From Alphaproteobacteria bacterium (lineage in GTDB: Bacteria > Pseudomonadota > Alphaproteobacteria > Rs-D84), in the NCBI GenBank assembly GCA_017629245.1, contig JAGBXO010000009.1, positions 38,256-102,255 of the forward strand: a DNA stretch of 64,000 bases. The letters are read 5' to 3'. This document shows, piece by piece, positions 12,701-60,165 of this stretch. A program made the translations under genes and the position numbers. Under the pieces are notes generated by a model. That model was not told the origin of the DNA. It saw only the letters and a list, made by a program, of their open reading frames with translations, and searched no databases. Within the stretch, counting starts at the first letter, position 1. Each line of letters starts with the position of its first letter.

Positions 12701-12739
12701 TAAAAATATAATATACGGATGTTGTAGGAGAAGATAAAC

Positions 12740-14368
12740 ATGATAAAGCCAATGAAATTTTTAGTTTTGTCTGCACTGGTGTTGGCGGTTGGGGCAGGTT
12801 GTGCTAAGCGTGAGTCGGCCAAGGTTGCGGCATCTGTAGATCAGGATTTTATAAATGCCTATGATGCTTTTGAAATGGCGAAAAATCCACGCGCCAAGGT
12901 TGCCAGTGGTGACACAGTTTCTATGTCTGAAGGTGTTTGGTTGGGGAATAAATCTGTGGCATTGGAACACAGAAATAAGTTGCCATCGAAATTTGAAACA
13001 GATATGGGTGTGACCATATTATTAGACGAGCCTGTGGCATTGCAGGTGTTGGCAAATGATATTTATTCTGTGACGGGGATTCCTGTAAAAATTGATGGAC
13101 AAGTATCGTCAGATAAGTTGAAAAAGCAGGTCAATATTGCATATACGGGTCGTTTGTCCGGACTGTTGAATCAAGTGGCGACGGATTTGGATTTGTTGTG
13201 GTACTATGATAAGAATTCTATTGTTTTTTATGAGACAGAAACCAAGACTTTTTCATTGTATGCCCTGGGGACTGAGGTTGCATATCAAACAGCCGTTTCA
13301 ACCGATGATTCGAATGAAGTGTCTTTGGAATCAACCCTGAAAGAATGGGACGAAGTTGAAAAGGCAATATCTTCTATTATTGGTAAGGCGGAAAATGCAG
13401 ACTTTACGGTGTCGCGCAGTTTAGGAACCATTACGGTAACGGCATCGCCATCTGTTTTGGCGCGTGTTAGTGAATATATTGAACGCCAGAATAAACGCTT
13501 AAGTCAGTTGGTGACAATTGATGTCAAGGTTTTGCAGGTGACAATTTCAAATGATTCTGCGTTTGGTTTGAATTTGGCGGCGGCTATTAATTCTACATCA
13601 GGATTAAATATTGTTGCCAATCCAAAGAATAATTTGGCATCAACTGAGGCCAGTTCAATGAATATCGCAGTGTTGTCAAATACTGTGTCGGCATTGACTG
13701 GGGCAACACATTTGGAAAATGGTTCATTGGTTGAAGGTGCCTATACAAATGATCAGATTATGAATGGTTCTTTGTCGGGGGCTGCGGGCAGTAATGCACT
13801 GATAGAAGCCTTGGCCAAGCAGGGCAAGGTGTCATTGGTGACGAATGTTGGTGTGACAACCCGTTCAAATCGTGTTGCGCCGGTCAGCAATACCCGCACA
13901 ACAGGTTATATCAAACGTTTTGAATCGCGAAACTTTACAACCGTGGAATCCAGTACTGTTGACCAGGACGATTTGGAGACAGGGTTCACCATGCAGTTGT
14001 TGCCGAATGTGTTGGAAAACGGCAGAATATTATTATTGTTCCGTATGTCTGTGCGTGAATTGTTGCGTATGTCAACCCAGACAATTGGTGAAGTGACATT
14101 GCAATTGCCAGAAGTTGAAGAACGCAGTTTTATGCAAGAAGTTATTATGGAATCGGGTCAGATGTTGGTTGTGTCTGGCTTTGAAAAACAAAAGGGTTCA
14201 GATACTCGTTATGGCCTTGGCGATCCTGACTTTATGGCATTGTCTGGTTCGCGTGAGACATCGGCCAGTCGTGAGGTTTTGGTGGTAATCTTGACGCCGC
14301 AGGTTCTGATTAGCCCAATGGATATGGAACGTAGTATTCAGCAGCATTGGGGTGCCCCGCTGAACTAA
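12740..14368 (+). CDS. Secretin-family outer-membrane lipoprotein, PilN-like (type IVb)
   Basis: Lipobox LAVGAGC. C-terminal secretin-like block (GVTTRSNRVAPVSN..., GFTMQLLPNVLENGRILLLFRMSV, SGQMLVVSGFEKQK, REVLVVILTPQVL). The 542-aa length is typical of PilN-type secretins. Confidence 0.6.
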   Translation: MIKPMKFLVLSALVLAVGAGCAKRESAKVAASVDQDFINAYDAFEMAKNPRAKVASGDTVSMSEGVWLGNKSVALEHRNKLPSKFETDMGVTILLDEPVALQVLANDIYSVTGIPVKIDGQVSSDKLKKQVNIAYTGRLSGLLNQVATDLDLLWYYDKNSIVFYETETKTFSLYALGTEVAYQTAVSTDDSNEVSLESTLKEWDEVEKAISSIIGKAENADFTVSRSLGTITVTASPSVLARVSEYIERQNKRLSQLVTIDVKVLQVTISNDSAFGLNLAAAINSTSGLNIVANPKNNLASTEASSMNIAVLSNTVSALTGATHLENGSLVEGAYTNDQIMNGSLSGAAGSNALIEALAKQGKVSLVTNVGVTTRSNRVAPVSNTRTTGYIKRFESRNFTTVESSTVDQDDLETGFTMQLLPNVLENGRILLLFRMSVRELLRMSTQTIGEVTLQLPEVEERSFMQEVIMESGQMLVVSGFEKQKGSDTRYGLGDPDFMALSGSRETSASREVLVVILTPQVLISPMDMERSIQQHWGAPLN

Positions 14369-31228: not shown

Positions 31229-31288
31229 CTTTATTTTTGCATTGTTTTATGATATAATTTCTAAAGAATACTTTAAAGGGATTTGAGA

Positions 31289-32221
31289 ATGAATAAATTA
31301 ATTTCAATAGTTGTTTTGTCGGCGGTTGCATTTTCTGCGGGGGCTGCACCATATGGTGGACCAGCGGCTGGGCGTGGACGCAATTCTATGTCTGGACAGA
31401 TGATGCCAGCACCACAGCAAAATATGCAATATCAAGCAAATCAAGAACGTTCAGGTGTTGCATCAAAAAATCAAATTTCTGCAACGGCAACTTTGGCACC
31501 GGATGCAGCGGTTGTACAGAAATCTAGTACCAAGGTTGATAATAATGTTAATGATAATATCAATGCAGATCTGGCGGTAAATCCAGAAGAAATGATTTCT
31601 GCGCAGAAAAAAGATATGCGCGAAAAGGAAAAAGGTGCATGTGTCTCTAATAATATCGGGGTTGGGAATACCTTTGTTTGGGCGTCGCGTTACAGTAATA
31701 TAAATAATTATTCAACAATGGTTGAAGATATTGAAAACCCAGAAAATAATACTTGCTTTGTTAAGGTTGAATTAAAATCTAATGACTCAAAGATTGGTGT
31801 TTCGGATGTGCCAAGTAAGTATTTTGAATGGGGGCAGAATATCGCATGTGGTTCATGGGCGGACTATGATATGTTGAAAAAACGTATATTGGATGCTAAA
31901 AAAACTGCACGTACATGGGCAACAGTTGGTGGTGCGGTTGGTGGTGCAGCCGTTGGTGTTGGTGCGATGGAATTGTTTGGTAATAAGATGATTGGTGGTT
32001 CTGTCCAAGGACAAAAAGCATTGGAAGGCGATCAATTGTTGCGTTCACAGTTGGTAGTGCTGAAAAAAGATAATGAAGCTGATTATAAAAAATTCATTAC
32101 TAATTTAAAGGTGCTGAAAACAGAATGTGCAAAGGATTATGTAGTTGAAGCCAAAGAAAAAGATGAAGAATTAAAGACTATGTGTGATGAATTTAAGGGG
32201 CTGTTTGATTTGGCTGCTTAA
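31289..32221 (+). CDS. Secreted hypothetical protein with a Gly-zipper hydrophobic segment
   Basis: Signal peptide MNKLISIVVLSAVAFSAGA, a Q/N/M-rich N region, scattered Cys residues, and the TWATVGGAVGGAAVGVGAMELFG segment. Confidence 0.55.
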   Translation: MNKLISIVVLSAVAFSAGAAPYGGPAAGRGRNSMSGQMMPAPQQNMQYQANQERSGVASKNQISATATLAPDAAVVQKSSTKVDNNVNDNINADLAVNPEEMISAQKKDMREKEKGACVSNNIGVGNTFVWASRYSNINNYSTMVEDIENPENNTCFVKVELKSNDSKIGVSDVPSKYFEWGQNIACGSWADYDMLKKRILDAKKTARTWATVGGAVGGAAVGVGAMELFGNKMIGGSVQGQKALEGDQLLRSQLVVLKKDNEADYKKFITNLKVLKTECAKDYVVEAKEKDEELKTMCDEFKGLFDLAA

Positions 32222-33317: not shown

Positions 33318-33675
33318 TAAAAAAAATGTCTATACAGTGTATATACAAAGGGCAGAAAATAGGCAAAAAAACGAATCGTTGTCAAAAAATAAAAGTGATT
33401 TTTTGGGCCAAGATTTACTTGTAAATGGAAAATAATATTTTAACTTATCTGTCGTATCCAAAACGAGAAAAAGGTAATCAAAAAACAGGGTTGGTTTTGT
33501 TTTAAATCTTTAAAATAAAATTAATCCAAAAAACATTAATGGCGCGAGAGAGTTTAAAGTAGGGCAATATAAAATACCGTGATTCAAATGAAAAGTGGTG
33601 TTTTGTGTAGGTGGTTTTTACAACCTTGTTCAGGCAGGAAACTCTTTTGAAAGGAAGGAAAAAGGAGAAAACGGC

Positions 33676-34962
33676 ATGCAGACAACAGCGGCAAAAATTC
33701 AAATGACTAACTTGGAAACTATCAAGGGGGCCATTGCCGCAAAAATTGATGCAGCGTCTTATACTTCTTGGATTGCACCTTTGTCTTTTGATGTTGTTAA
33801 TGGAACTTTGGTTTTGGGTGCACAGAACCAGTTTTCTGCGGACTTTATCAACAGTGTTCATATGGGGACAATTGCGTCTGTTGCAGCAGAATTTGGTCTG
33901 AATGCCTCTGTTGTTGTTGCTTCTGTTAAGCAGACAGTTGCTGCGCCAGTTGCAAATGACAATCGTGCACAGGCATATGCACCAGTGGCAGAAAAAGTAG
34001 TAAGCACATCAGTTGCATTTGATTCTTTTGTTTGTTCAGATGAAAATTTATTTGTTGTATCTGCATGTAAAAAAGTCGCAGCGGGTTCAGTTCCTTTTTC
34101 ACCGCTGTTTATTTATGGTGCGGCAGGTTGTGGCAAATCTTTGTTGACAGAATGTATTGCAGGGGCTGCAACATCAAAAGTTGTTAAGATGAGTGGTGCA
34201 CAATTTGTTTCTGAATTTGCACGTAGCTTGAAAGAACACAATGTTTTTGCATTCAAGGATTTCTGTCGTAATTGTGATACTTTCATCTTGGATGATGTTC
34301 AGGCCTTGTCAGGTAAAAAGGCAACAACAGAAGAATTTATTCAGCTGATTGTTGATTTGCGCAATGCGGGCAAGAATGTTGTTCTGACTGCAAATGCAAT
34401 GCCAGGTAATTTGACAGGTTTTGATCGTCGTGCGCAAAGCCTGATGGCGTCGGGTTTAGTTGCAGATGTTGTTGCGCCAAATACATATGTAAAATCTGTT
34501 TTGTTGAAACGCGCAGGTGTAAAATCTGATGTTGCAGATACTTTGGCGGGACGTATTGCAAATGATGGTCATTTGTTGGCAGGGATTGCAACAAAAATCA
34601 AGACATATGCTGAACTGATGGGAACAAGTGTTGATATGACAATTGCAACGCGTTTGTTGGCAGATTCTTTGCAGACAGTAAAAACACCGGTTGCGATGGT
34701 TAAAATGATGTGTGAAAAATTGGGTGTGTCTTATGATGCAGTTTGTGGCAGTGGTCGCAGTCGTAACCTGGTCTTGGCACGTCAGGTTATGATGGTTGTT
34801 TTAAAAGGGGCGACACAGTTGTCTTTGTCAGAAATTGGTAATTTTGTTGGTGGTCGTGATCATGCAACAGTTTTGTATGCAATCAAACAAATCGAAAAGA
34901 ATATTGCATCTGATTTGGTTTTGGCTGCGCAGATTAAACAGTTAACAGAAGAATGCAAATAA
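33676..34962 (+). CDS. dnaA: Chromosomal replication initiator DnaA
   Basis: Walker A GAAGCGKSLL, Walker B ILDDVQ, and the C-terminal DNA-binding helix region RSRNLVLARQVMMVVLK...GGRDHATVLYAIKQIE. Strong purine-rich RBS before the ATG at 33676. Confidence 0.9.
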   Translation: MQTTAAKIQMTNLETIKGAIAAKIDAASYTSWIAPLSFDVVNGTLVLGAQNQFSADFINSVHMGTIASVAAEFGLNASVVVASVKQTVAAPVANDNRAQAYAPVAEKVVSTSVAFDSFVCSDENLFVVSACKKVAAGSVPFSPLFIYGAAGCGKSLLTECIAGAATSKVVKMSGAQFVSEFARSLKEHNVFAFKDFCRNCDTFILDDVQALSGKKATTEEFIQLIVDLRNAGKNVVLTANAMPGNLTGFDRRAQSLMASGLVADVVAPNTYVKSVLLKRAGVKSDVADTLAGRIANDGHLLAGIATKIKTYAELMGTSVDMTIATRLLADSLQTVKTPVAMVKMMCEKLGVSYDAVCGSGRSRNLVLARQVMMVVLKGATQLSLSEIGNFVGGRDHATVLYAIKQIEKNIASDLVLAAQIKQLTEECK

Positions 34963-35029
34963 TTGAATTCTTGGTAAGGATTATGTTAATGAAAATATAT
35001 CATTTTTATGATATAATGTATGAGAGAAA

Positions 35030-37267
35030 ATGAAAAAACTGGTTTTATGTTTTTTCAGTATATTATTGTTTGCGCCCGGTGCATTTGGTGCCGATGGCGC
35101 TGTTTCACGTGTTTTGCCATCACTGGATAATGGTGGGGACGCAAATGCGGATACGGGGCGGGGCACCGTATCGCGCGTGGCAACCCGTGTTGTTGATATG
35201 GGGCAGACGGGAAAAAATACCAAAAGTACAGAAGGTTTGTCGGTTGCGCCGGTGCGCAGTGCGGTATCGCGTGTTTTTTCTGGTGTGTCAGAGGTTAAAA
35301 AGGACACGAGCCTACAGGTGGCGACGGGCGTTGTTGCGCGCTCGGGCTTAAAATCAAACAATACAGCGCGCAGTAATTTAAACGAAGCGGTGAGTACAGT
35401 CGGTCGTAACAAACGTGTGTCAGATGCCAGCATTAATGCAAATCCGACCGTTCGTCGGGCGGGGGTGACACTGCGCCCTAGCACAGCTGAGGTTGGCGGA
35501 CGTGCCATAATAGGAGATACGGGGGTACAAACAGGGTCTAATATAGATGAGCAGGTTCGTGCTGTGCATTCACGTGCCGCCAAAGAAGTGACTGCGGAAT
35601 CAATTGCAGAAGCGACTACACGGTTGGAGCAGACTGCCACATTAAATAAATCTTGTCAGGAACAGTATAATGACTGTATGGATCAGTTTTGCAAGGTTAT
35701 TGATGCAAATCAGGGACGCTGTTCGTGTTCGTCTAACCTAAGTCAGTATGCCAAGGTGGAAGAAGCGGTTAAGGATGCGAATAATCAGTTGAACGAAGTT
35801 GCACAACGCATTCGCTATGTTGGTTTGTCTGCAGATGAAATTCGTGCAATTTTGACCGAGACCGAGGCAGAAGAAGCCTTGTCCGGAACAAAGGACACAT
35901 CACAAACCCGCAATATGTTGGAACAGATTGAAGAATTGATTCGTGATCCGGTATCGAATACGGCAACATTTACAGAATCAGATAGTTTTGGTCTGGATAT
36001 TGATTTGGATTTTTCGTCAGACAGTACGGATATATTTAATATTGATTTCTTGGGAACGGGTAATACGGGCAGTTTTTCAAACCTGCGTGGGGCAGAATTA
36101 TATAGGGCGGCGAAAAAGCGTTGCAATACAGTGTTAAATCAATGCAAAGAAGCGGGCTCAACCATTGCGCAAATTACAGGGAATTATGACCTGGCGATTG
36201 ATAAGGATTGTGTGGCGTATGCAAATGGCCTGAAAAAGATGAACGAGACATTAATCTCAAATGTGGGCAGTGCGAATCGTATGTTGCAAAAGGCGCGTCT
36301 GGCGGTGTTGCAAAATAAAAATACATACGATGCTAAGGGCTGTATTGGCGCGTTAGAGTCGTGTATGACCGATGAAATGGTTTGTGGAGAAAAGTACTTT
36401 AAGTGTGTTGATCCGACAAAAACATATATTGATGAAAATGGTCAGGTTATATTGGGCAGGCGTACGGCAGATATATTGGATTTTATGCAAAATTACAATA
36501 ATGCCAGTATTAATAAAGACTTTTTGGATGGAGCAGAAAGTATAACGATAAATACTGCAAATTGTAAGGCGGTGTCGTCAAATGCAGATACGGGTGATGG
36601 TAAATGTACGGCAAAGTATTTATTGCAAAAGATTGGAACAGGGCAAAAGGTGACAGATAGTGGTTTGTGTCGTGCGGTATTAGATAAGTGTCAGGCCTAT
36701 ACATATGATTCGGACGGCAAGTATATCAAATATAACGATATTGTTGTAAATTATGTTCAGCGTGCATTGGTTAATATTCGTGCAGCGCAAAGTAAGATTA
36801 TATCAGAATATGCGTCCAGTTGTATTGTTGATGTGGCAGATTGTTATAATGAACAGGTGACCCAGGTGAATACTTGGTCTTCAAATGCCAGTGTTGGCAG
36901 TATACAAAAAGTACTGGCAGGTGCGTGTCGTAATGTGGCACTGACATGTGCGTATGCGGTGTTTGCCCAGGATACATCTAGTTGTTCGGTGCGCGATGAA
37001 TCTAAGTGTATACAAAATATTTCGAAAATGTTCTATCAGTCATTGCTGTGTCCAGAAAATTCAACATACACGCAGGTAATAGGAACTGCTGGCATTAATG
37101 GGTATGTTAATACGCACTGTACATGTAATACAGGGTATGAAATATGGGGCAGTTCGTGTCTGAAGAAATGTAATGAGGTGTCTGAGGTGCGTGATTCATA
37201 CGGGGTGTGTCAATGTAGTTCGGGTTATGAATTGGCGAATGGGGTGTGTACCAAAAAATCAAGTTAA
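35030..37267 (+). CDS. Large secreted cysteine-rich protein (C-x6-C repeats, two EGF-like C-terminal modules)
   Basis: Signal peptide MKKLVLCFFSILLFAPGAFGA. A basic VSRV-repeat region of about 190 aa. At least 6 C-x6-C motifs. C-terminal CTCNTGYEIWGSSC and CQCSSGYELANGVC. TGaTATAAT promoter at 35009-35017. Confidence 0.65.
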   Translation: MKKLVLCFFSILLFAPGAFGADGAVSRVLPSLDNGGDANADTGRGTVSRVATRVVDMGQTGKNTKSTEGLSVAPVRSAVSRVFSGVSEVKKDTSLQVATGVVARSGLKSNNTARSNLNEAVSTVGRNKRVSDASINANPTVRRAGVTLRPSTAEVGGRAIIGDTGVQTGSNIDEQVRAVHSRAAKEVTAESIAEATTRLEQTATLNKSCQEQYNDCMDQFCKVIDANQGRCSCSSNLSQYAKVEEAVKDANNQLNEVAQRIRYVGLSADEIRAILTETEAEEALSGTKDTSQTRNMLEQIEELIRDPVSNTATFTESDSFGLDIDLDFSSDSTDIFNIDFLGTGNTGSFSNLRGAELYRAAKKRCNTVLNQCKEAGSTIAQITGNYDLAIDKDCVAYANGLKKMNETLISNVGSANRMLQKARLAVLQNKNTYDAKGCIGALESCMTDEMVCGEKYFKCVDPTKTYIDENGQVILGRRTADILDFMQNYNNASINKDFLDGAESITINTANCKAVSSNADTGDGKCTAKYLLQKIGTGQKVTDSGLCRAVLDKCQAYTYDSDGKYIKYNDIVVNYVQRALVNIRAAQSKIISEYASSCIVDVADCYNEQVTQVNTWSSNASVGSIQKVLAGACRNVALTCAYAVFAQDTSSCSVRDESKCIQNISKMFYQSLLCPENSTYTQVIGTAGINGYVNTHCTCNTGYEIWGSSCLKKCNEVSEVRDSYGVCQCSSGYELANGVCTKKSS

Positions 37268-37298
37268 AAAAAACGGCGGAATGCCGTTTTTTTTAACT
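37262..37298. terminator. Bidirectional terminator
   Basis: AGTTAAAAAAAACGGC-GGAAT-GCCGTTTTTTTTAACT palindrome between convergent genes. Confidence 0.8.
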
Positions 37299-37301
37299 TG
37301 A

Positions 37302-37826
37302 TTATCGTATGTTTTGACGCGCAATGTATTCGTTTATCATATTGTCGCGTAACGTTAACTGGTGTTTTAAATCATTACGTGATGCGTGGTTCAGGTGCGA
37401 TAAATAATCCTTTTCGTAATTATCAAATACATACCAACCGCCGGGGTAGACCTGAACAACAGGTTTGCCGTTGTCTTTGTCCAGGTATTCAATAATTGTT
37501 GCAGAAATGCGTTCGCCCATAATTTCGCGCAAGATATCGTGGCTGCGAACCATGTCGACTGCGCATGGGTTCGGAAATTGTTTACATGAAATAAATCCTG
37601 AAGTTTGATCTTGTTTTTTTCCGTTGATTTCAATTACTGGTAATGGTGTGGTTTTGCACAGGTCAAACAGTGTGGCATTGGCCAGCACCTTATATGTAAT
37701 GACATACGTGTTCTTTTTCTTTTTGCTGCTATGGTTTGGTGCGATTTCTGGTTTTTGTGTCTGTTCAACAGCGGGTTGTTCGCTGACTTTTTCTGTTTTT
37801 TGTTTAAAAATATCAAAAAATCCCAT
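37302..37826 (-). CDS. Hypothetical 174-aa protein
   Basis: Intact ORF with its own terminator. The N region is Lys-rich and probably disordered. No recognisable family. Confidence 0.45.
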   Translation of the reverse strand: MGFFDIFKQKTEKVSEQPAVEQTQKPEIAPNHSSKKKKNTYVITYKVLANATLFDLCKTTPLPVIEINGKKQDQTSGFISCKQFPNPCAVDMVRSHDILREIMGERISATIIEYLDKDNGKPVVQVYPGGWYVFDNYEKDYLSHLNHASRNDLKHQLTLRDNMINEYIARQNIR

Positions 37827-45012: not shown

Positions 45013-47025
45013 ATGAAATTGCTGACGTCTTTTTTATTGTTGGTTTTGTGCGCGATGCCGGGCGTCGCGGGTGCGAATGTTGCAACAACTGCGGGCAGTA
45101 ATTTGACTGCCTGGAATGGGGACAGTGGTGCAACAAATAATAATAATTGGAATCAAATAATGAACAGTCGTACCCAGGCAACGGGTATGGTTGGGCAAAA
45201 GCCTAAGGCGGATTTTGGTAATTGTAATTCTTTGATTTTGCGTTGTGCGCAACCAAAGTGTGCGGGATGTACAACGATGGATATTGCGCGAACAATTGTT
45301 GAGGGGTGCGTTAACAGTAATGACACATGTAAAAAGCATGGCAACGATTTAGTGGATTATATATCTGCACAAATTGTGGCCGATGCAAATGCCAAGGTAC
45401 AGCAACAGCAGTTAGCAGCGCAAAATGCGGCAGCCCAGGCGGCGGCGGCACAAAACAGTGCCCAAATGCAGCAGATGCAACAACAAATGCAGCAGATGCA
45501 GTATGAAATGCAACAGCAAAATGCACAACAGATGCAGCAAATGCAGGCGGCATTAGAAGAACAAAAGGCATTGGCGGCCCAGGCTCAGGCTGAAGCGGTG
45601 GCGGCTGCAACAGCCCAGGCTGAAGCGGCGGCAGCAGCATCGCAGAGTTTGTCAAATGTTAGTGATGCCCAGGCCGAAGCGATTGAGAAGGGTGTTTCTG
45701 CAGATGTTTTGATGCGCAATCAAATTTCAGGTCAGATTTTGACTAAAATTGAAAATGCTGAGGTTGCATTAAAAACATTGAATGCAACAATGCAGGATAT
45801 CTTTACATACGCAGGCTGTGATACGCGTGGAAATAGCTGTTCGGGGCCAAAACGTGTGAAGATTTTTAAACAAAAGGCGATGGGATTTTTTGATCCGTAT
45901 GATGCCATCGTAGACGAGGCGTACGAAGGCCTGGAAATGGCGTTGGCGGTTGGCGCGGATGTATCGGATGTTATTATGATGTTAAGTGGTGCGTGCAACC
46001 AGTGGGGCAAATTTATGTGTACCACAGATGCGTCAGGTGGAAAACACCAAGAAGGTCATTATACCGAGGACACATGTAAAAATGGTCGTTCCGTCAAGGG
46101 TGCGATATATGTAAAGAAAGACGGTGATAAAATTGCGGTTGGTGCGGTCAAAGGTGGAATGGAATGTACACCCGGTATGGTTGTTCCACCCCAAGATGAT
46201 TCGCGTTGTACATTGACTGAATTGATTGGTGGAACGGGAACCGACCGAGACGAAGTTTTACGTGAATGGATTAATGAAGCCGATGATGGAGATAAATTGA
46301 TTCGTGTTGGGTGTGCAACATCGGCGTTGGAATCTATTGCAATATTTGGTCGTCGCAACAGTCGTAATGGCGCAACATTGGATTTAGATACTTTGGAACG
46401 CATTATTGCCCAGGATGCACCAGAATTTTCGATTAATAATCGGTATATGAAGCAGGGAACAGATATCAATGAACGGTTAAAGTATTGCGCAATTAATGAA
46501 AAAAGTTATCCGCGATTGTTGACGGCGGTCAAGACAAAAAAACTGCCTAAGACGATTTGTACCACGACCAAGGCATTGGAACGCGAATATGCAACCAATG
46601 GTTCGATTAGTTATTCTGTTGATTGGGCCGAAGTTGGTTTGTCGGAATATGTGCCAGGGATTGAGGCCAAAGAGCATTGTAAGGCATATGTGACAGATAT
46701 TGAAACGGGGTGCAGTGTTGAATGGGCAGAGACTGAAGAACGTTGTCGTGTTTATGGTGACCGCTGTGGGTTTGATGTGATAGATGGAAAGGTTAAAAAG
46801 AAGGCAGATACTGAGGCGAATAAAAATAATGTTGTTGTTGATAACAGTATCAAGAGTGCATGTGTGGGCAGCGGTGGTAGTTGGGTTGTAAGTACAAATG
46901 AAGCCTATTGTTTGTGTCCGAAAGAAGGTTATGAGAATTATATGGGGAGAGATGGAAAATGCGTGAAGAAGAAAGACGATGTGTTGAGTGGATGGGAGTC
47001 TTTTCAACAGATTATTGCCTTTTAA
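45013..47025 (+). CDS. Secreted cysteine-rich protein with a Q/M/A-rich coiled-coil tract and an EGF-like C-terminal module
   Basis: Signal peptide MKLLTSFLLLVLCAMPGVAGA. C-x6-C-x4-C (CNSLILRCAQPKC). QQMQQQMQQMQ tract. C-terminal CLCPKEGYENYMGRDGKCVKKKD, similar to the end of the 35030 gene product. Confidence 0.65.
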   Translation: MKLLTSFLLLVLCAMPGVAGANVATTAGSNLTAWNGDSGATNNNNWNQIMNSRTQATGMVGQKPKADFGNCNSLILRCAQPKCAGCTTMDIARTIVEGCVNSNDTCKKHGNDLVDYISAQIVADANAKVQQQQLAAQNAAAQAAAAQNSAQMQQMQQQMQQMQYEMQQQNAQQMQQMQAALEEQKALAAQAQAEAVAAATAQAEAAAAASQSLSNVSDAQAEAIEKGVSADVLMRNQISGQILTKIENAEVALKTLNATMQDIFTYAGCDTRGNSCSGPKRVKIFKQKAMGFFDPYDAIVDEAYEGLEMALAVGADVSDVIMMLSGACNQWGKFMCTTDASGGKHQEGHYTEDTCKNGRSVKGAIYVKKDGDKIAVGAVKGGMECTPGMVVPPQDDSRCTLTELIGGTGTDRDEVLREWINEADDGDKLIRVGCATSALESIAIFGRRNSRNGATLDLDTLERIIAQDAPEFSINNRYMKQGTDINERLKYCAINEKSYPRLLTAVKTKKLPKTICTTTKALEREYATNGSISYSVDWAEVGLSEYVPGIEAKEHCKAYVTDIETGCSVEWAETEERCRVYGDRCGFDVIDGKVKKKADTEANKNNVVVDNSIKSACVGSGGSWVVSTNEAYCLCPKEGYENYMGRDGKCVKKKDDVLSGWESFQQIIAF

Positions 47026-52665: not shown

Positions 52666-54972
52666 ATGAGAATAAATAATATTGTGTTTTCTGGTGTTAT
52701 GGCAACGATTTTGATGTCGGTTGCTGGTGTGGCCGGTGCAGCGACTGTTAATTTGGCCAGTAAGAACTATGTTGATGATGCGTTGGCGCAGAAACAAAAT
52801 GTATTGACTGCGGGTGAGGGGATTGAGATTTTTGATAATGTTGTTAAGTTAAAGCATGATATGCCGGATTTTAATAATTTTGCGAAGCATAGTGATTTGT
52901 CTGCTTTGGAAAAGGCTTTGAAGGCAGAGATTATGGCAAAGCATGCGTCTGGTGATTATGCGACAGCGGCGCAATTGCAGGAATTGAAAAATACAGTAGA
53001 GGCTTTGCAAACAGGTGGTGCGGACAAGGCTGCGATTGAAAGTTTGCAGGCGTCGGTTGCGACGATTAGTGCGGATTATGCGAAGAAAAGCGAATTGAAT
53101 GCGACTGAACGGGATTTGCGCAATGCGATTAGTACAGTTGATGCAGCGGTCAAAGCGATTGATTTGAGTCAGTATGCAACGGTTGATGATGTTGATGCGA
53201 AGTTGTTGCTGAAGGCAAATGCAAGTGCGTTAAATACATTAAAGACAACATTGGAAGCAGCGATTGCGGAAAAGCAGGATAAGGGTGATTATTTGGTGGA
53301 ATCTGATTTGGCGGAATTGCAGAATGCGGTTAATGCATTGGATTCTGGCAAGGCAGATGCAAGCACGGTCACAGCGTTGCAGACAGCGATTAATAATTTG
53401 GGGAATACTTATTCAACAAAGGGTGAATTGAGTGATGTTGAAGCCAGATTACAGAATGCGATTTCGGCAATTCAAATCCCAAGTTTGGATGGTTATGCCA
53501 AGTTGACAGATATTCCATCAACGGCGAATTTAGCGACCAAAGCAGAATTGGCAACCAAGGCAGATGCAAGCGCGTTGAATGATTTGGTGACAGGTGAAGA
53601 ATTGGAAACCTTGCGTACGAATTTAGAGGCGGAAATTGCAAAGAAACAGGCATCAGGCGATTATGCGACGGCAAATGCATTGAAAGCGGTTTCTGATTCG
53701 TTGGCAGAATATGCAAAAACGTCAAATGTTTATACCAAGGCAGAAGTTGATCAGAAAATTGCGGACGCAGCATCGGGTGGGGATATTGACCTGTCGGGTT
53801 ATGCAACAACATCTGCATTGGATGCTTTGAAATTATTGGTTAATGGCAATGCGACCGAGATAACCAATTTGAAAAATGCGGGATATCAGACAAAATCAGA
53901 TGTTCAGGGTGCGATTACAACAGCAGTTGCAGATTTGGCAACCCGTAGTGAACTGGGTGGGTATGTAAAATCCTCTGAATTGGCAGAGGTTGCGACAACG
54001 GGTTCCTATAATAGCTTGTCTGACAAACCGACAATACCTTCAATTGAAGGGTTAGCAACCAGTGCCGAGTTGCAGGCGTTAGAAGATAAAATTGCAGAAA
54101 AGCAAGATGCAGGTAATTATTTAGAAGATGCAGATTTGGCAGAAATTAACGCTGCGATAGCGCAATTGCAGTCTGGTAAGGCGGATGTGGCGACGGTTAC
54201 AGCTTTACAGACAGCGATTAATAATTTGGGTGGTACCTATGCATCTGATTCGGAATTAACCACAGCGATTAATAATGTTGTAGCATTGATCCCGTCTGTG
54301 CCGACAGATGTTTCTGCGTTTACAAATGATGCAGGGTATATTACCAGTGCGGCGTTGGATGGTTATGCGACTAAGTCAGAAATTCCATCAACGGCAAATC
54401 TGGCGACCAAAGCAGATTTGGCAACCAAGGCAGATGCAAGCGCGTTGAATGATTTGGTGACAAGTGAAGAATTGGCAACCCTGCGTACGAATTTAGAGAC
54501 GGAAATTGCAAAGAAACAGGCGGCGGGTGACTATGCGACGGCGACTGCGTTGAAGGCGGTTTCTGATTCGTTGGCAGAATATGCAAAAACATCAAATGTT
54601 TATACCAAGGCAGAAGTTGACGAGAAGATCGCAGGTGCTGCATCAGGTGGAAATGTTGATTTGTCTGGCTATGCAACAACATCTGCATTGGAAGCATTGC
54701 AGGCATTGGTTAATGGCAATGCGACTGAGATAACCAATTTGAAAAATGCGGGTTATCAGACATCAACAGATGTTCAGAATGCAATTACAACAGCGACAGA
54801 GGGGTTTGCAAGTCAGGATGATTTGGCAGGTTATATGGCAACGCCGGCAAATCCGGGGACTGGAAAATATTTGTTGTCTGCAACATGTACCAGTAAAAAG
54901 TGTTCATATTCATGGAAGTTGACCAGTGAAATTGTTGGTGACGGTTCTGATGGTACTGTTGGTGAAATATAA
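52666..54972 (+). CDS. Fibre-family paralogue 2 (768 aa): Ala-rich repetitive tail-fibre-like protein
   Basis: Signal peptide MRINNIVFSGVMATILMSVAGVAGA. Mature N-terminus ATVNLASKNYVDDAL. Internal duplication of about 288 aa. EVATTGSYNSLSDKPTIPS motif. Tip GKYLLSATCTSKKCSYSWKL. Confidence 0.65.
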   Translation: MRINNIVFSGVMATILMSVAGVAGAATVNLASKNYVDDALAQKQNVLTAGEGIEIFDNVVKLKHDMPDFNNFAKHSDLSALEKALKAEIMAKHASGDYATAAQLQELKNTVEALQTGGADKAAIESLQASVATISADYAKKSELNATERDLRNAISTVDAAVKAIDLSQYATVDDVDAKLLLKANASALNTLKTTLEAAIAEKQDKGDYLVESDLAELQNAVNALDSGKADASTVTALQTAINNLGNTYSTKGELSDVEARLQNAISAIQIPSLDGYAKLTDIPSTANLATKAELATKADASALNDLVTGEELETLRTNLEAEIAKKQASGDYATANALKAVSDSLAEYAKTSNVYTKAEVDQKIADAASGGDIDLSGYATTSALDALKLLVNGNATEITNLKNAGYQTKSDVQGAITTAVADLATRSELGGYVKSSELAEVATTGSYNSLSDKPTIPSIEGLATSAELQALEDKIAEKQDAGNYLEDADLAEINAAIAQLQSGKADVATVTALQTAINNLGGTYASDSELTTAINNVVALIPSVPTDVSAFTNDAGYITSAALDGYATKSEIPSTANLATKADLATKADASALNDLVTSEELATLRTNLETEIAKKQAAGDYATATALKAVSDSLAEYAKTSNVYTKAEVDEKIAGAASGGNVDLSGYATTSALEALQALVNGNATEITNLKNAGYQTSTDVQNAITTATEGFASQDDLAGYMATPANPGTGKYLLSATCTSKKCSYSWKLTSEIVGDGSDGTVGEI

Positions 54973-55034
54973 GGTTGTGATTTAAATTAATAGTACAGGT
55001 GGGAATTAATACAAATATTGATAAGAGAAGAAAA

Positions 55035-56183
55035 ATGACAAGGAAAATATCTTTTTTGCTGCCGTTTTGTATTTTTGTTGCATTGTCTAATGTGGCATAT
55101 TCAGCGGAAAATTACGCAAGTGAAGAATATGTTGATGATTTGTTTTTTGAGGTTATAGACTATGTTGATAGCACAACTACGCCTATGAACAGAACCATGA
55201 AAACAAACGATAATCAGCTTTTTGAGAATCAGGTTGTGTTGCGTGATATGTTGAATGCCAGAGATGCTGATGATAATTGGATTCAGTTAGATACAGAAGC
55301 GAAGTTGGCGATTCCGGCGATTAATGAATTGCATTCGGAAATGGCGGGCAAGCAGGATGTGATTACAGCGGAAAATCCGTTGGCGGTGGAAAATATTTCG
55401 GGGTTGTCTGAAGTGGCGACGACGGGTTCATATAATAGTTTGTCGGACAAGCCGGAAATCCCATCGGTGGATGGATTGGCAGAAAAGTCATATGTTGATG
55501 AAGAATTGGCTAAGAAAGTATCGGCAGAAACGATTCAGAATTTGGAACAGAATATAACAAATAATTATCTGACCAAAACTGATGCCCAGAATACATATTT
55601 GACACAAGAAACTGCATCAGAAACATATGTAACAGAACAGCAAGTGACACAACAGATAACAAATGTTGTTGGTTCGGCGGATTCTGGTTTGTTAAAAGAT
55701 GTTGCAGATAACAAAGCGGCAATTGCGACTAAGGCAGATAAGTCTGCATTGGAAACAGCGGTTGCGGATTTAGATGCCAAGATTGACCAGGCAGTTATTG
55801 ATTCTTCAAATATTGATTTGTCCAGTTATGCAAAAACCGAAGATGTTGCCAAGACATATGCAACAATTGGAACTGTTGATGCGGTTGAAGGTCGGGTCGA
55901 TACAATAGAGGCAGCTGGCTATCAAACTGCAGGTGATGTTCAAGGGGCGATTACAACTGCAACCAAAGATTTAGCGACAAAGTCTGAGTTGGCAGGTTAT
56001 GTGTTGGCCGATTCTTTGGGTGCATTGGCAACTAAGGATTCTGTTTCGACAGATGAAATTCAAGCAAAAGCTGTGACTATGGACAAGATTGCGGGACGTG
56101 AGCCTGTGGCCGGTGAAACATTACTGATGTCTGTTGATGCAGAAGGTAATGTGACATGGTTGTCAGTAGAGATTTTGAAGTAA
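55035..56183 (+). CDS. Fibre-family paralogue 3 (382 aa)
   Basis: Signal peptide MTRKISFLLPFCIFVALSNVAYSA. ASEEYVDDLF. EVATTGSYNSLSDKPEIPS. Tip GETLLMSVDAEGNVTWLSVEILK. The start is ambiguous (GTG at 54999 is possible). Confidence 0.6.
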   Translation: MTRKISFLLPFCIFVALSNVAYSAENYASEEYVDDLFFEVIDYVDSTTTPMNRTMKTNDNQLFENQVVLRDMLNARDADDNWIQLDTEAKLAIPAINELHSEMAGKQDVITAENPLAVENISGLSEVATTGSYNSLSDKPEIPSVDGLAEKSYVDEELAKKVSAETIQNLEQNITNNYLTKTDAQNTYLTQETASETYVTEQQVTQQITNVVGSADSGLLKDVADNKAAIATKADKSALETAVADLDAKIDQAVIDSSNIDLSSYAKTEDVAKTYATIGTVDAVEGRVDTIEAAGYQTAGDVQGAITTATKDLATKSELAGYVLADSLGALATKDSVSTDEIQAKAVTMDKIAGREPVAGETLLMSVDAEGNVTWLSVEILK

Positions 56184-56224
56184 AAAAATAATCGAAATAT
56201 TAAAAAAAGGAAAGGACGGAAAAA

Positions 56225-57208
56225 ATGAAAGTAAAAAATATTATGTTTTCAGGCTTTGCGGCGGCCGTTTTTGCAACGGTATGTGGGGCAGCTGTTGCAG
56301 CAGATGTGTCTTTGATTTCAAAAGATTATGCAGATGCAAAATTGCAGGCAAAATTGACAGAGGGGCAGGGTATTAATATCGCAGAACAGGCAGATGGTAC
56401 AACAACGATTTCTGCGGATGTTGACCTGTCAACATTGGCGACAAAAGAATCTGTAGAGGCATTGGGTAATAAACTTGGTACATTGCAGAATGAACAGGGT
56501 GAAAGTATTACTGTTCAGGCGGCCTTGGCAGGTAAGCAGGATACATTGACAACTGAACAACAGGCGGCAATTGATTCTGGGATTGATTCTGAGGCGGTTG
56601 CCCAAATTACAACCAACAAGAATAATATTTCGGGGTTGACAACACGTATGACCGAAGCTGAATCTGATATTCAGGCGAATACCGAGGCGATTAATACTTT
56701 GAGTGGTGGAAACGGCAGTGAGGGTGTTGCGAGCTTGATGCAGGATGTTAAGGATAATACGGCAGACATCGCAAAATTGAATGCAGATGCGCAAACAGAA
56801 GGTTCGGTTGCAAAGTCTATTGCTGATGCCTTGGCAAATGGCAATTATGTTGATGAAACCGAATTGACACAAAAAGGCTATCAGACGGCAGGTGATGTTG
56901 AGACAGCGATTAACAATTTGAATTTGGGCGGAAATTATCAGGCTAAGTTAGATGATACACAGATGAAGGCGGTTAATTCAGGTGTTGATTCAGATAAGGT
57001 TGCTGCGATTGCTACAAATACCCAGGCAATTGCGGATAATGCTGCAGAAATTGCTAAAAAGGTTTCGGTTGTGACTACGGCGGGCACATATCTGGTGAAT
57101 TTTGATGCAACGGGTGCTGTATCATATGCGCCAATTAAGATTTTGGACAAAGACGGTAATGAAATCACATTGAATGGTGAAAGTGCGGTTAAGCCATCTG
57201 CAAATTAA
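56225..57208 (+). CDS. Fibre-family paralogue 4 (327 aa)
   Basis: Signal peptide MKVKNIMFSGFAAAVFATVCGAAVA. ISKDYADAKL. Shares identical DNA tracts with paralogue 5. Tip GTYLVNFDATGAVSYAPIKIL. Confidence 0.65.
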   Translation: MKVKNIMFSGFAAAVFATVCGAAVAADVSLISKDYADAKLQAKLTEGQGINIAEQADGTTTISADVDLSTLATKESVEALGNKLGTLQNEQGESITVQAALAGKQDTLTTEQQAAIDSGIDSEAVAQITTNKNNISGLTTRMTEAESDIQANTEAINTLSGGNGSEGVASLMQDVKDNTADIAKLNADAQTEGSVAKSIADALANGNYVDETELTQKGYQTAGDVETAINNLNLGGNYQAKLDDTQMKAVNSGVDSDKVAAIATNTQAIADNAAEIAKKVSVVTTAGTYLVNFDATGAVSYAPIKILDKDGNEITLNGESAVKPSAN

Positions 57209-57284
57209 TATAAATAGTGTCACCCCATAATATTTTGGGGTGGCATTTAAAAATAAAAAACGAAAGAAAAGAAAGGAAATAATA

Positions 57285-58253
57285 ATGAAAATTAAAAATG
57301 TTATGTTCAGCGGTGTTATGGCGGCAATTCTGACGATGTCTGTTGGTGCTGCGATGGCAGAAGGGGAAACGGCGGCAATCAGTGTTGCGTCAACAGGTTA
57401 TGTTGAAGCCAAAGTTGGTGCTTTAGAAACAAGTGTTCAGGGCGTTTATCAGACGAAAGCGGATGCTAAAACAGCGGCAGATGAACAGAAGCTAATCGAT
57501 GATAAGCAGACCCAGGACATCAAGTCAAATACAGAAGCGATTAACATGTTGGGCGGTGATTCAGGTGCGGAAGGTGTAGCAACATTGGTAAGTGATGTTA
57601 ATACGAATAAGACTGCGATTGAAAAATTGAATGCAGATGCGCAAACAGAAGGTTCGGTTGCGTATAAAATTGCCCAGGCTGTTTCAGATGAATCATTAAG
57701 TAAGTACACAACAGATGCAGAATTAGAAGGAAAAGGCTATCAGACAGCTGGTGATGTTCAGACAGCGATTAACAATTTGAATTTGGGCGGAAATTATCAG
57801 GCTAAGTTGGATGAAACACAGATGAAGGCAGTTAATTCTGGTGTGGATGCTGATAAAGTGTCTGGGTATGATTCTGTGGTTTCGGCTGTTAACAACGAAA
57901 AAAGTGGTTTGGTTGCTACATATGATATTGCCACTGCAAATAAGGCAGCAATTGAAGCCGAGAATACAGGTCTGGCCGCGGCGCATACTGCAATTGCGAC
58001 ATTAAATGGTGCTGATACCGAAGCGGGGTCTGTTGCATATGCGGTTAAGGGATTGGCAGATGGTGCAGTTGCAACAAATACTGGTGCAATTGCGACATTA
58101 AATGGTGCTGATACCGAAGCAGGGTCTGTTGCACATACTGTAAAGGGTTATGCGGTTCCAAAACCAGGTGCTAATTGTGCACATGCAAAATGTGTTTTGT
58201 CAGTTGATCAGGATGGGGCTCCATACTGGATGGAATTGGCATTATCATTATAA
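57285..58253 (+). CDS. Fibre-family paralogue 5 (322 aa)
   Basis: Signal peptide MKIKNVMFSGVMAAILTMSVGAAMA. ASTGYVEAKV. 32-aa tandem repeat. Tip CAHAKCVLSVDQDGAPYWMEL. Confidence 0.65.
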   Translation: MKIKNVMFSGVMAAILTMSVGAAMAEGETAAISVASTGYVEAKVGALETSVQGVYQTKADAKTAADEQKLIDDKQTQDIKSNTEAINMLGGDSGAEGVATLVSDVNTNKTAIEKLNADAQTEGSVAYKIAQAVSDESLSKYTTDAELEGKGYQTAGDVQTAINNLNLGGNYQAKLDETQMKAVNSGVDADKVSGYDSVVSAVNNEKSGLVATYDIATANKAAIEAENTGLAAAHTAIATLNGADTEAGSVAYAVKGLADGAVATNTGAIATLNGADTEAGSVAHTVKGYAVPKPGANCAHAKCVLSVDQDGAPYWMELALSL

Positions 58254-58272
58254 TCATATTTTGACCAATACG

Positions 58273-58304
58273 CAGGGGCAAAGAAATGCCCCTGTTTTTT
58301 TTTT
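58273..58304 (+). terminator. Rho-independent terminator after paralogue 5
   Basis: CAGGGGCA-AAGAAA-TGCCCCTG followed by T10. Confidence 0.8.
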
Positions 58305-58334
58305 ATAAAAATACGGCAGTGTGTTTTTTTGGTC

Positions 58335-58364
58335 TTTACACGATTCGGGCAAATATGATATAAT
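58335..58364 (+). promoter_or_regulatory. Promoter of paralogue 6 (TTTACA - 18 nt - TGaTATAAT)
   Basis: Read directly. GATTCG in the spacer. Confidence 0.55.
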
Positions 58365-58394
58365 GCACCATACGAAAGAAAGGAAGGGAATATT

Positions 58395-60053
58395 ATGAAA
58401 AAATTAACTGCGGGTATTTTTTCCGTATTGTTGGGGCTGGTGTCTGTGGGTTCTGCAAATGCAGCCGTTGTTTCAACTGAATATTTAGAAGATGTTTTGG
58501 AAACACAATTGGCAAATATGCAGACAACAATGACTGCAACTGGACCGGTAAAGATTGAAAATAATGTTATTTCTGTTGATATGGGTGCTGTGTCTGAAAT
58601 AGGGACAAACCTGGTGACGGCAAAGGATATTTATGCGGCGGTTAATGCAGCGGTTGCAGATCAACAGGTAAAGTCTAATTTGGTTAAGACAGGTGCAGAT
58701 GGATCGGTTGTTGCACCAGCAGTAGGGACGGAAAATGAACACTATCCATCGTATGCGGCAACGGTTAAAATTGCCGAGAATGCGGTTGGTATTTTGACCG
58801 GTGGTGTTTCTGCGTTGGAAGGTGATGTTTCCACATTAAAGACAAATGTTGCAGATATCAAAGAGAATATTGGTAACCTGGGCGAAGGTGTGACGGTTGA
58901 ATCTGCGTTGGGATTAAAGGCTGATAAAACTGCATTAGCGGCAACGGATGAAAAGGTTGCGGCAAATGAATCTGCAATTGCGGCGATTAATAATGCAGAA
59001 ACAGGTGTTCTGAAACAGGCCCAGGGCTATGCAGATACTAAGGTTTCTGAATTGGCAGCAGGTGCGGTTAAAACAAATGCGGATGCAATCGCAGCAGAAA
59101 AATCTGCACGCGAGGCGGCGGATGCACAATTGCAGACAAACATTAATCTAAAGGCAAATGCTGCAGATGTTTATTCCAAGACCGATGCTGATGCAAAGTT
59201 TGAAGCACAAGCGGCTGCAACTGCGAAATTGCAGGCGGCCAAGGATTATGCGGATGCACAGATTAAAACACTGACAGATAGTTTAGGTGGTACTGGTGAA
59301 GATGGTTCTAGTACTGGTTTGACTGGTGTGGTTGCATCCCAGGGGGTTAAGATTTCTGCATTAGAAGACAAGGTTGGTGATAAGTCAGTTGTTGCGCGTA
59401 TAGAGGAATTAGATTTCTCGGATCAGGCGGTTGATAAAGAATTTGTAACAGCGGTATCCCAGGAAAACGGTGTTATTACTGTGTCACGTGCAGCGTTGGC
59501 CGAATCGGATATTCCAACATTGTCAATTGAAAAGGTTGAAGGTTTGCAGGCGGCATTGGATGCAAAACAGGTTAACCTGACCGGCCAGCAAGGTGTAATC
59601 GTTATTGCAGATGGTGTTGTTTCAATCGCAGCTGGTGGTGTTGGAACGGCGCAATTGGCAGATGCGGCCGTAACAGAAGGTAAGATTGCCGATAATGCAG
59701 TAACAGAAGGTAAGATTGCCAATAATGCGGTGACATCGACCAAGATTGCAGATGGCGCAATCACCAAGGGTAAGATTGGTGAAAGTGCGGTTGAGGCAGG
59801 AAATTTGGCAACGGGGGCAGTGCTAGAAGGAAATATTGCCGCCGGTGCCGTGACGGCGGATACAATTGCGAAAAATGCAGTTGGTTCCGATCAATTGGCG
59901 TCGGATGTTAATTCGTTGCTGGCGGGGGCGATTCAGGCACCGTCGGAAACAAATGCTGATGGAACCTTTGTCTTGACGGCCAAGAAAATTACTGTCGATG
60001 GCAAAGTGACGTATTCATATGCGTGGGAAGATATTGCCGGACGCAGTGAATAA
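58395..60053 (+). CDS. Fibre-family paralogue 6 (552 aa) with 11-residue (A/G)xV(T/E)xGKIAxN-type repeats
   Basis: Signal peptide ...VGSANA. VSTEYLEDVL. Repeats AAVTEGKIADNAVTEGKIANNAVTSTKIADGAITKGKIGE. Tip GTFVLTAKKITVDGKVTYSYAWEDI. Confidence 0.65.
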   Translation: MKKLTAGIFSVLLGLVSVGSANAAVVSTEYLEDVLETQLANMQTTMTATGPVKIENNVISVDMGAVSEIGTNLVTAKDIYAAVNAAVADQQVKSNLVKTGADGSVVAPAVGTENEHYPSYAATVKIAENAVGILTGGVSALEGDVSTLKTNVADIKENIGNLGEGVTVESALGLKADKTALAATDEKVAANESAIAAINNAETGVLKQAQGYADTKVSELAAGAVKTNADAIAAEKSAREAADAQLQTNINLKANAADVYSKTDADAKFEAQAAATAKLQAAKDYADAQIKTLTDSLGGTGEDGSSTGLTGVVASQGVKISALEDKVGDKSVVARIEELDFSDQAVDKEFVTAVSQENGVITVSRAALAESDIPTLSIEKVEGLQAALDAKQVNLTGQQGVIVIADGVVSIAAGGVGTAQLADAAVTEGKIADNAVTEGKIANNAVTSTKIADGAITKGKIGESAVEAGNLATGAVLEGNIAAGAVTADTIAKNAVGSDQLASDVNSLLAGAIQAPSETNADGTFVLTAKKITVDGKVTYSYAWEDIAGRSE

Positions 60054-60082
60054 AAAAAATTTTATTTCAGGTGATTTTATTG

Positions 60083-60112
60083 TAGACGGCGATTCGCGTT
60101 TTATGATAAAAT
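60083..60112 (+). promoter_or_regulatory. Promoter of paralogue 7 (weak -35, extended -10 TGaTAAAAT)
   Basis: Read directly. GATTCG lies 10 nt upstream of the -10, as in the promoter at 51682. Confidence 0.45.
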
Positions 60113-60165
60113 ACACCTGAAGAGAAAGAGAACAAAAAACAAAACAAAAAGAAAGGAAGGAAAAC

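Follow-up and report, generated by a model that had tools for sequence, protein, structure and literature searches.

A cysteine-rich exported protein encoded next to dnaA

We analysed a 64,000-nucleotide stretch of DNA (hereafter, the window) from an uncultured alphaproteobacterium of the Rs-D84 lineage (GCA_017629245.1, contig JAGBXO010000009.1, positions 38,256 to 102,255 of the forward strand) and focused on a single open reading frame (ORF) at 35030-37267. It encodes a protein with a regular cysteine pattern, best explained as an exported protein of the envelope or surface that is confined to one lineage, in a gut alphaproteobacterium resembling Candidatus Enterousia (Rs-D84). The ORF is present as an original prediction, made from the letters alone, had described it, and the Sec-type signal peptide claimed there could be read from the sequence. 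The signal peptide has a predicted cleavage site and no lipobox, and its proline at position 16 is invariant across the family. The chain holds 31 Cys, one in the signal peptide and 30 in the mature protein, for which we calculated a mass of ~78 kDa, an isoelectric point (pI) of 5.4 and a Cys content of 4.1%.

To delimit the segments of the protein, the mean identity of each was computed over 120 homologues, and a full-length AlphaFold2 model was built on 37 homologues. The mean predicted local distance difference test score (pLDDT) of the model was 54.7, with residues 1-190 disordered, 190-430 forming long low-confidence helices, and 435-745 at pLDDT 70-85. Conservation was patchy, the termini and linkers having values of 0.32-0.59 and the tail end (residues 717-745) 0.33. 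The features are as follows.

35030-37267, + strand: complete ORF, ATG start, 745 amino acids including the signal peptide
35030-35089, + strand: Sec-type signal peptide, residues 1-20, MKKLVLCFFSILLFAPGAFG/ADG
35090-35329, + strand: variable, disordered Arg/Ser/Thr/Val-rich region, residues 21-100; mean identity 0.32, pLDDT 25-30
35330-35629, + strand: conserved basic region, residues 101-200; pI 10.7, mean identity 0.70, low model confidence
35630-35839, + strand: Cys cluster 1, residues 201-270, C209-x6-C216-x4-C221-x9-C231-x-C233; mean identity 0.89
35840-36094, + strand: acidic helices followed by a variable, disordered linker rich in Asp and Ser, residues 271-355; net charge -12
36095-36439, + strand: Cys cluster 2, residues 356-470, C365-x6-C372, C394 and C438-x6-C445-x6-C452-x6-C459; mean identity 0.84, Cys invariant
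36440-36664, + strand: variable insert with C512 and C526, residues 471-545; mean identity 0.54
36665-36964, + strand: Cys cluster 3, residues 546-645, C547-x6-C554, C598-x6-C605 and C633-x6-C640, all on predicted helices
36965-37099, + strand: linker containing C652 and C660, one helix and FYQSLLCP, an invariant motif with C674, residues 646-690, from the family alignment
37100-37264, + strand: ladder of putative disulfide-closed beta-hairpins, residues 691-745, from pattern matches and a confident model
37118-37159, + strand: hairpin 1, residues 697-710, CTCNTGYEIWGSSC, followed by C714; EGF_2 pattern match
37208-37249, + strand: hairpin 2, residues 727-740, CQCSSGYELANGVC; EGF_2 pattern match

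The basic, low-complexity stretch that had been noticed after the signal peptide was confirmed (residues 21-200, pI 9.5-10.7) and carries repeated A/T-V-S-R-V (xVSRV) motifs starting at residues 24, 46 and 78. The region at 21-100 is longer in relatives, and that at 101-200 has many invariant Arg and Gly columns (...RRAGxTLRPSxAEVGGRA...TGSN...). Cluster 1 is the best-conserved block and lies on and past a long predicted helix (189-227). The acidic part of the following linker, residues 311-355, is variable among homologues. The helices predicted in cluster 2 span 354-374, 379-429 (51 residues) and 435-446. Cluster 3 has a mean identity of 0.77, a pLDDT of 70-85 and invariant Cys.

Spacing, invariance and parity of the cysteines

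All six of the C-x6-C pairs listed in the original prediction are present, including CQEQYNDC with its trailing x4-C. Two more (C445-C452 and C452-C459) bring the total to eight, as C438, C445, C452 and C459 form an unbroken C-x6-C-x6-C-x6-C run. When the mature sequence was shuffled 20,000 times, C-x6-C pairs averaged 1.18 and eight were never reached; the strict EGF_2 pattern discussed below occurred 0.0009 times on average, and its two matches were likewise never reached. Both counts are thus far beyond chance. Each of the 20 Cys between residues 209 and 640 was substituted in at most 6 of the ~250 sequences that cover them (270 including the most divergent representatives, the rest of which do not cover the core Cys sites). 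Fourteen of the 16 Cys in the eight pairs fall on predicted helices, which would put both members of a pair on the same helix face.

The number of Cys in the mature protein was even in 218 of 233 full-length members. Past the FYQSLLCP Cys, the tail held an odd number of Cys in 133 of 134 members, so that this Cys and the tail together always give an even total. In the protein of the window, clusters 1 and 2 contribute 5 and 7 Cys, residues 471-645 another 8 and residues 646-745 another 10; by parity, clusters 1 and 2 would have to be linked to each other. Even counts were also found in other exported proteins of the window. Taken together, parity and conservation appear to be the signature of a fully disulfide-bonded protein to which modules are added in Cys pairs. 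Co-loss of Cys was uninformative as a guide to disulfide partners among the 270 sequences because the core Cys almost never vary.

A tail of EGF-like half-modules

Both C-terminal motifs fit the pattern that the original prediction had named for epidermal growth factor (EGF) modules, C-x-C-x(2)-[GP]-[FYW]-x(4,8)-C, which is PROSITE PS01186 (EGF_2). Chance had been raised there as a possible source of the matches; against the shuffles they are far above it, and the motifs are conserved in position and modular. The strict pattern occurs in 116 of 236 full-length members. Hairpin 1, in the form HC-x-C-N-x-GY-x-x-WG-x-x-C-x3-C, is nearly universal in the family; hairpin 2 is absent from many close relatives, whose chains end directly after ...SYGVCQ, and a third hairpin is found in some, so that close relatives range from 1 to 3 copies. 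In distant relatives the core is extended to 1,300-2,300 residues. In three of these (P0126, P0159 and P0161) hairpins of the form C-x-C-x2-G[FY]-x(5-8)-C make up the extension in tandem, and in a further relative (P0128) the core is joined to Listeria-Bacteroides repeats (PF09479, E 2e-11) and other Cys-rich repeats. The CxC...GY...C motif is therefore a real and mobile structural unit.

The claim that these are genuine EGF modules was not supported. An EGF domain has six conserved Cys, paired C1-C3, C2-C4 and C5-C6. Each unit of the tail corresponds to the C4-x-C5...C6 half of this framework, with three Cys rather than six and no N-terminal C1-C3 subdomain, and family members gain or lose tail units two Cys at a time. 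No Pfam EGF-type model matched the protein at E<=1, or relatives with 4-7 or more tandem modules at E<=0.1, the one match of these relatives being to TIL_2, below threshold (E 0.016).

A separate model of residues 645-745 was confident (pLDDT 89.3, predicted template modelling score 0.70) and showed one helix, residues 13-29 of the model, which is the helix of the linker, followed by four beta-hairpins. Its nearest Foldseek neighbours in the PDB were EGF arrays (Pvs25, MSP1-19, NELL, Delta-like) and cysteine-rich domains of the tumour necrosis factor receptor (TNFR) type (DcR3, OPG, TNFR1). These matches were non-significant (E 0.07-0.9, probability <=0.63, template modelling (TM) score <=0.35, root mean square deviation >6 Å), the TNFR-type ones having E 0.1-0.3, TM ~0.25 and no Pfam match. 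A library of viral structures returned the same non-significant mix together with adenovirus fibre shafts. Judging from the model, the tail would be classed as an EGF/TNFR-like, disulfide-closed hairpin ladder and not as a demonstrable EGF domain. A PROSITE EGF_2 match in bacteria can thus reflect a simpler hairpin unit rather than a true EGF domain.

A family new to the searched libraries

The full protein had no Pfam match above threshold, no NCBIfam match and no PDB sequence match at E<=10; the best profile match was DUF2959 (E 0.016), below its cut-off. This agrees with the earlier statement that no characterised family could be assigned. Foldseek searches of the full-length model against the PDB reached a best E of 0.21, to long helical proteins with TM <0.1, and the core as modelled has no detectable structural relative. 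The family is undescribed in Pfam, NCBIfam and the searched literature. We define it by a signal peptide, an R/S/T-rich N-terminus, a C-x6-C-x4-C-x9-C-x-C cluster, two further invariant CX6C clusters, FYQSLLCP and the hairpin tail; the ORF of the window has all of these and scores 1343 bits against the family profile. The kind of protein, a secreted, disulfide-rich and modular bacterial surface or envelope protein, is a known category, but the family itself is new to the libraries and papers searched.

A word-indexed search returned >1000 matches, all of them unnamed, the best 120 of which were full-length at 59-93% identity. In an exhaustive profile search of 1.84 billion representatives, 707 clusters (50% identity) were found at E<=1e-3 and 218 at E<=1e-30. 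The named sources were metagenome-assembled genomes labelled Alphaproteobacteria or Rickettsiales. Among species-representative genomes, 78 loci with a relative were retrieved, mostly from Candidatus Enterousia or uncultured Alphaproteobacteria of human, ruminant, horse, bird, mouse and rabbit guts, and the exact window sequence was found in bovine gut metagenomes. In these searches, which took up the proposed check of the phylogenetic distribution, the family, with its C-x6-C architecture, appeared restricted to Enterousia-like alphaproteobacteria (Candidatus Enterousia, order Rs-D84), all of them uncultured inhabitants of the gut or rumen.

In genomes that share the neighbourhood, the protein is 70-75% identical, versus 87-98% for dnaA, gyrB/parE and dnaJ, and thus diverges faster than its housekeeping neighbours. 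One metatranscriptome offers weak evidence of expression: low-depth contigs of a related strain cover parts of the gene at about the depth of its neighbours, and DNA carry-over is possible.

Candidatus Enterousia genomes are mostly <1 Mb (PMC12306168). The lineage is reported to have no tricarboxylic acid cycle or respiratory chain and to miss glycolytic steps and many biosynthetic pathways; a partner-dependent lifestyle has been proposed, and many hypothetical membrane proteins may mediate cell interactions (PMC12306168).

Genomic context

The regulatory signals at the gene, and recurrent features of related loci, are listed here.

34989-35017, + strand: sigma-70-like promoter match, ATGAAA-17-TATAAT with an upstream TG (extended -10), 10 of 12 positions, ending 13 nucleotides before the ATG
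37258-37302, either strand: bidirectional intrinsic terminator hairpin, A8-CGGC-loop-GCCG-T8, common to the convergent ORF at 37302-37826
L029:14589-16022, L043:13147-14442 and L071:15517-16722, - strand: examples of multi-pass membrane proteins recurrent in related loci
L007, L012, L015, L018, L019, L034, L035 and L043 (e.g. L043:4803-7139): among the loci with a distant tandem paralogue

The gene begins 67 nucleotides after dnaA (33595-34962; Pfam Bac_DnaA, E 3e-29). Its position immediately downstream of dnaA, which had been pointed out in the original prediction, holds in the window but not as a conserved link, as it is kept in only the 3-4 closest of the 78 loci (L001, L003, L004 and, in part, L002). 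The adjacency is incidental, and the idea that the gene is functionally tied to dnaA or to the origin of replication was rejected. GC skew was positive in every 2-kb bin of 1-64000 and cumulative skew rose monotonically with no switch at dnaA, so there is no skew-defined origin beside dnaA in the window. The gene had also been credited with a strong promoter of its own. The consensus match is there, but its strength is not supported, promoter-like matches in the region numbering 10 against 7.1 +/- 3.2 in shuffles.

The convergent ORF on the - strand (37302-37826) encodes 174 amino acids, has no Pfam or NCBIfam match and is fast-evolving (60-81% identity in the closest relatives). Upstream, an ORF at 31283-32221 (+) encodes a 312-residue Sec-signal protein with 5 Cys, a Gly/Ala-rich hydrophobic segment and no family match; the closest relatives have it too (66-86% identity), again beside plsY and dprA. 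The window as a whole has a reduced-diderm gene set, with housekeeping genes and TolB, AsmA, an outer-membrane protein (OMP) beta-barrel protein, FtsEX and a TcpQ-secretin pair. The last of these, at 11723-14368 (+), pairs a protein with a TcpQ domain (E 6e-18) with a secretin encoded after it (E 3e-13), an outer-membrane channel like those of type IVb pili or type II secretion systems, in a genome that is presumably <1 Mb.

Elsewhere, the family recurs beside housekeeping genes (rplU and those for a dnaQ-like exonuclease and a uvrD-like helicase), beside a distant paralogue and beside three multi-pass membrane proteins, none of which is in the window. The membrane proteins (400-480 amino acids) lie 3-6 kb downstream in ~35 related loci, and one has a sub-threshold match to TrbL/VirB6 (E 0.0099). 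The distant tandem paralogue lies ~1 kb upstream on the same strand in 22 of the 78 loci by hidden Markov model (HMM) or 35 by BLAST clustering. It has 700-900 amino acids with 26-38 Cys and shares the R/S/T-rich N-terminus and the C-x6-C-x4-C-x9-C-x-C cluster of our protein, but has no EGF-pattern tail.

Other secreted proteins of the window

A second secreted Cys-rich protein is encoded at 45013-47025 (+). It has 670 amino acids and 24 Cys in the mature chain, with four CX6C pairs, a coiled coil rich in Gln and, at its C-terminus, a hairpin-like motif (CLCPKEGYENYMGRDGKC). We considered and rejected this ORF as a paralogue, given that BLASTP gave E >=1.6 and neither family profile detected it. 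As the two proteins are not detectably related, the hairpin motif may be common to unrelated exported proteins of the organism.

Further downstream (52666-61443, +), six tandem ORFs of 768, 394, 327, 337, 552 and 425 amino acids carry Sec signals. Their products are Ala/Thr/Asp-rich, internally repetitive and coiled-coil-like, with no Pfam match, and in several of them a short C-terminal domain holds a Cys pair (CTSKKC, SCAAGGNGTC, NCAHAKC). The group resembles a row of paralogous fibre proteins or adhesins. A weak collinear BLAST match between our protein and the first of them (52666-54972) was rejected as compositional, the latter being Ala/Thr-rich with 2 Cys and no HMM support.

Proposed role and alternative explanations

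Our preferred reading, which we hold tentatively, is that the exported protein forms a helical stalk stapled by disulfides, with a variable hairpin tip at its distal end, and that a partner-dependent bacterium uses it for attachment. After Sec export and cleavage of the signal peptide, the disordered basic N-terminus, rich in Arg, Ser, Thr and Val, would presumably hold the protein to the negatively charged envelope. A rigid, mostly alpha-helical stalk would follow, its helices stapled by disulfides between i/i+7 Cys in three clusters (5 + 7 + 8 Cys), and the C-terminal ladder of small disulfide-closed beta-hairpins would form the distal tip, which may bind a host surface, mucus or another cell. 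The tail is evolvable, with relatives carrying one, two, three or dozens of hairpins, or other adhesin-type repeats instead. It is because the tail varies and expands that we propose it as the binding end, and the partner dependence proposed for the organism makes attachment the most economical role. The nearest neighbours of the tail model, at non-significant scores, are extracellular rod-like modules (EGF arrays, TNFR domains, fibre shafts), and the diderm envelope genes of the window (TolB, AsmA, the OMP beta-barrel protein and the secretin) also fit. The disulfide bonding and its connectivity, the localisation, the orientation and the adhesive role are what we infer here, and the function with them.

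Several observations weigh against this stalk model. The strong conservation of the core would equally suit a structural or machinery role. Beyond the Sec signal, the protein has no lipobox, beta-barrel, autotransporter or sorting motif, so that it may be retained in the periplasm; a test for autotransporters and trimeric autotransporters (beta-barrel translocator, YadA anchor) gave no Pfam match, and the C-terminus is modelled as soluble hairpins. Confidence in the full-length model is poor, most of the first 430 residues having pLDDT <50. Neither a dedicated export system nor a conserved operon partner was found, synteny being kept only with the distant tandem paralogue. No DsbA-like gene was found in the window or the 78 fetched loci, a search of these loci rather than of whole genomes, and a CxxC search of the same sequences turned up a cytoplasmic thioredoxin reductase alone. 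As the lineage reportedly has no respiratory chain either, the formation of disulfides is hard to explain. A bolder proposal, which we regard as speculative and rather improbable, is that the core is an undescribed fold of long CX6C-stapled helices serving as the main attachment organelle of an obligately partner-dependent order of gut alphaproteobacteria, with the tail an independent EGF/TNFR-like invention, and that the protein is fully oxidised in an anaerobe without a respiratory chain, implying an unconventional disulfide pathway.

The same core could instead belong to a periplasmic or outer-membrane-associated structural protein whose intra- and intermolecular disulfide network rigidifies the envelope, as in chlamydial OmcB/OmcA, with no adhesive function. 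The 4.1% Cys content with invariant Cys, the Sec signal standing alone, the strongly conserved core and the reduced-genome host would all suit such a protein, as would the basic N-terminal region, a feature that OmcB has as well. We nonetheless consider it unlikely, as neither DUF11 nor the Pfam families of chlamydial OMPs match the protein and its predicted fold is alpha-helical rather than beta-sandwich; moreover, the expandable C-terminal arrays and Listeria-Bacteroides repeats of relatives are typical of exposed binding regions, and the near-perfect even parity favours intrachain pairs over a network. The parity argument extends to a dimeric or trimeric fibre, in which a coiled coil would be locked by interchain disulfides at heptad-spaced Cys and the hairpin tail would serve as shaft or tip, like those of the fibres of phages and adenoviruses: symmetric interchain bonds do not need an even count, which better fits intrachain pairing. 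C-x6-C spacing does equal one heptad, helices of 42 and 51 residues are predicted, and monomer confidence is low in the helical N-terminal half. The best TM scores of the tail were to a tail fibre of an extracellular contractile injection system, the Afp mini-fibre, reovirus sigma1 and adenovirus fibre, and six tandem fibre-like secreted ORFs lie in the same window. Every fibre match was non-significant (E >=0.18, TM <=0.35), however, and we find this explanation doubtful and improbable.

Genuine EGF domains acquired from a eukaryote and mimicking EGF-family ligands or receptors of the host, as the original prediction implied, would be in keeping with the two EGF_2 matches, which are far above chance and conserved in position, with the presence of Pvs25, MSP1-19, NELL and Delta-like EGF arrays among the top Foldseek matches, and with life in animal guts. 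This origin is very unlikely given the half framework with units added two Cys at a time, the want of Pfam EGF-type matches (target at E<=1, multi-repeat relatives at E<=0.1), fold matches that fall short of significance and are as good to TNFR cysteine-rich domains, the strict pattern in only 116 of 236 full-length members and the tail being the least conserved part of the protein. Least probable of all is that the Cys clusters bind metal or perform redox chemistry (e.g. periplasmic metal sequestration or thiol buffering) rather than form structural disulfides. The invariant clusters, including a four-Cys run at 7-residue spacing, the anaerobic habitat of a lineage without a respiratory chain to drive DsbB, and the lack of a Dsb gene in the window and fetched loci could be read that way. 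Yet the protein has neither CxxC nor CxxCH and none of the His/Cys motifs usually seen at metal sites, parity is even across members and modules, other exported proteins of the window have paired Cys, and the hairpin geometry in the model is typical of disulfide-closed loops.

Enterousia and other Rs-D84 members are widespread uncultured gut and rumen bacteria with genomes <1 Mb. With 20 invariant Cys, retention across at least 78 species and frequent duplication, the protein is among the few obvious candidates for the lineage's cell-surface interface. If it is an attachment stalk, it would provide a handle for enrichment, imaging and identification of hosts or partners, through reagents such as antibodies or tagged tail domains. 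Were all 30 Cys oxidised in a bacterium that reportedly does not respire, one would have to ask how its disulfides are made.

Comparison with known systems

Among known systems, EGF domains (PS01186; Plasmodium Pvs25/Pfs25 and MSP1-19 arrays) resemble the tail in sequence pattern, in being small extracellular disulfide-closed hairpins, in tandem arrangement with variable copy number and in ranking as top Foldseek neighbours; the tail differs in having 3 Cys per hairpin rather than 6, no profile-HMM match and fold matches at E >=0.07 and TM <=0.35. TNFR cysteine-rich domains (DcR3, OPG, TNFR1) are likewise elongated ladders of short disulfide-stapled beta-hairpins and rank equal to EGF arrays in Foldseek, but the matches are non-significant, the Cys spacing is different and Pfam TNFR_c6 does not match.

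Like our protein, chlamydial OmcB and OmcA are Sec-exported, ~60-80 kDa in size, with ~4% Cys and a basic N-terminus, belong to bacteria with reduced genomes and have a plausible disulfide-dependent role in the envelope. OmcB consists of beta-sandwich repeats, whereas helices and a hairpin tail are predicted for our protein, which has no sequence or Pfam relation to the chlamydial ones, Chlam_OMP6 and DUF11 repeats included. In twin-CX9C/CHCH proteins and the Sel1-like Hcp of Helicobacter, Cys at fixed spacing on helices also staple neighbouring helices. Here the spacing is CX6C (one heptad) and the architecture is far larger, with several clusters; CHCH proteins belong to mitochondria, and neither a Pfam CHCH match nor a Sel1 match at E<=1 was found. 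Bacterial modular surface adhesins with PF09479 repeats, finally, combine a conserved core with variable C-terminal repeats. Our protein has no PF09479 repeat, and no known domain for anchoring or secretion is present in its core, whereas its relative P0128 bears PF09479 on the same core.

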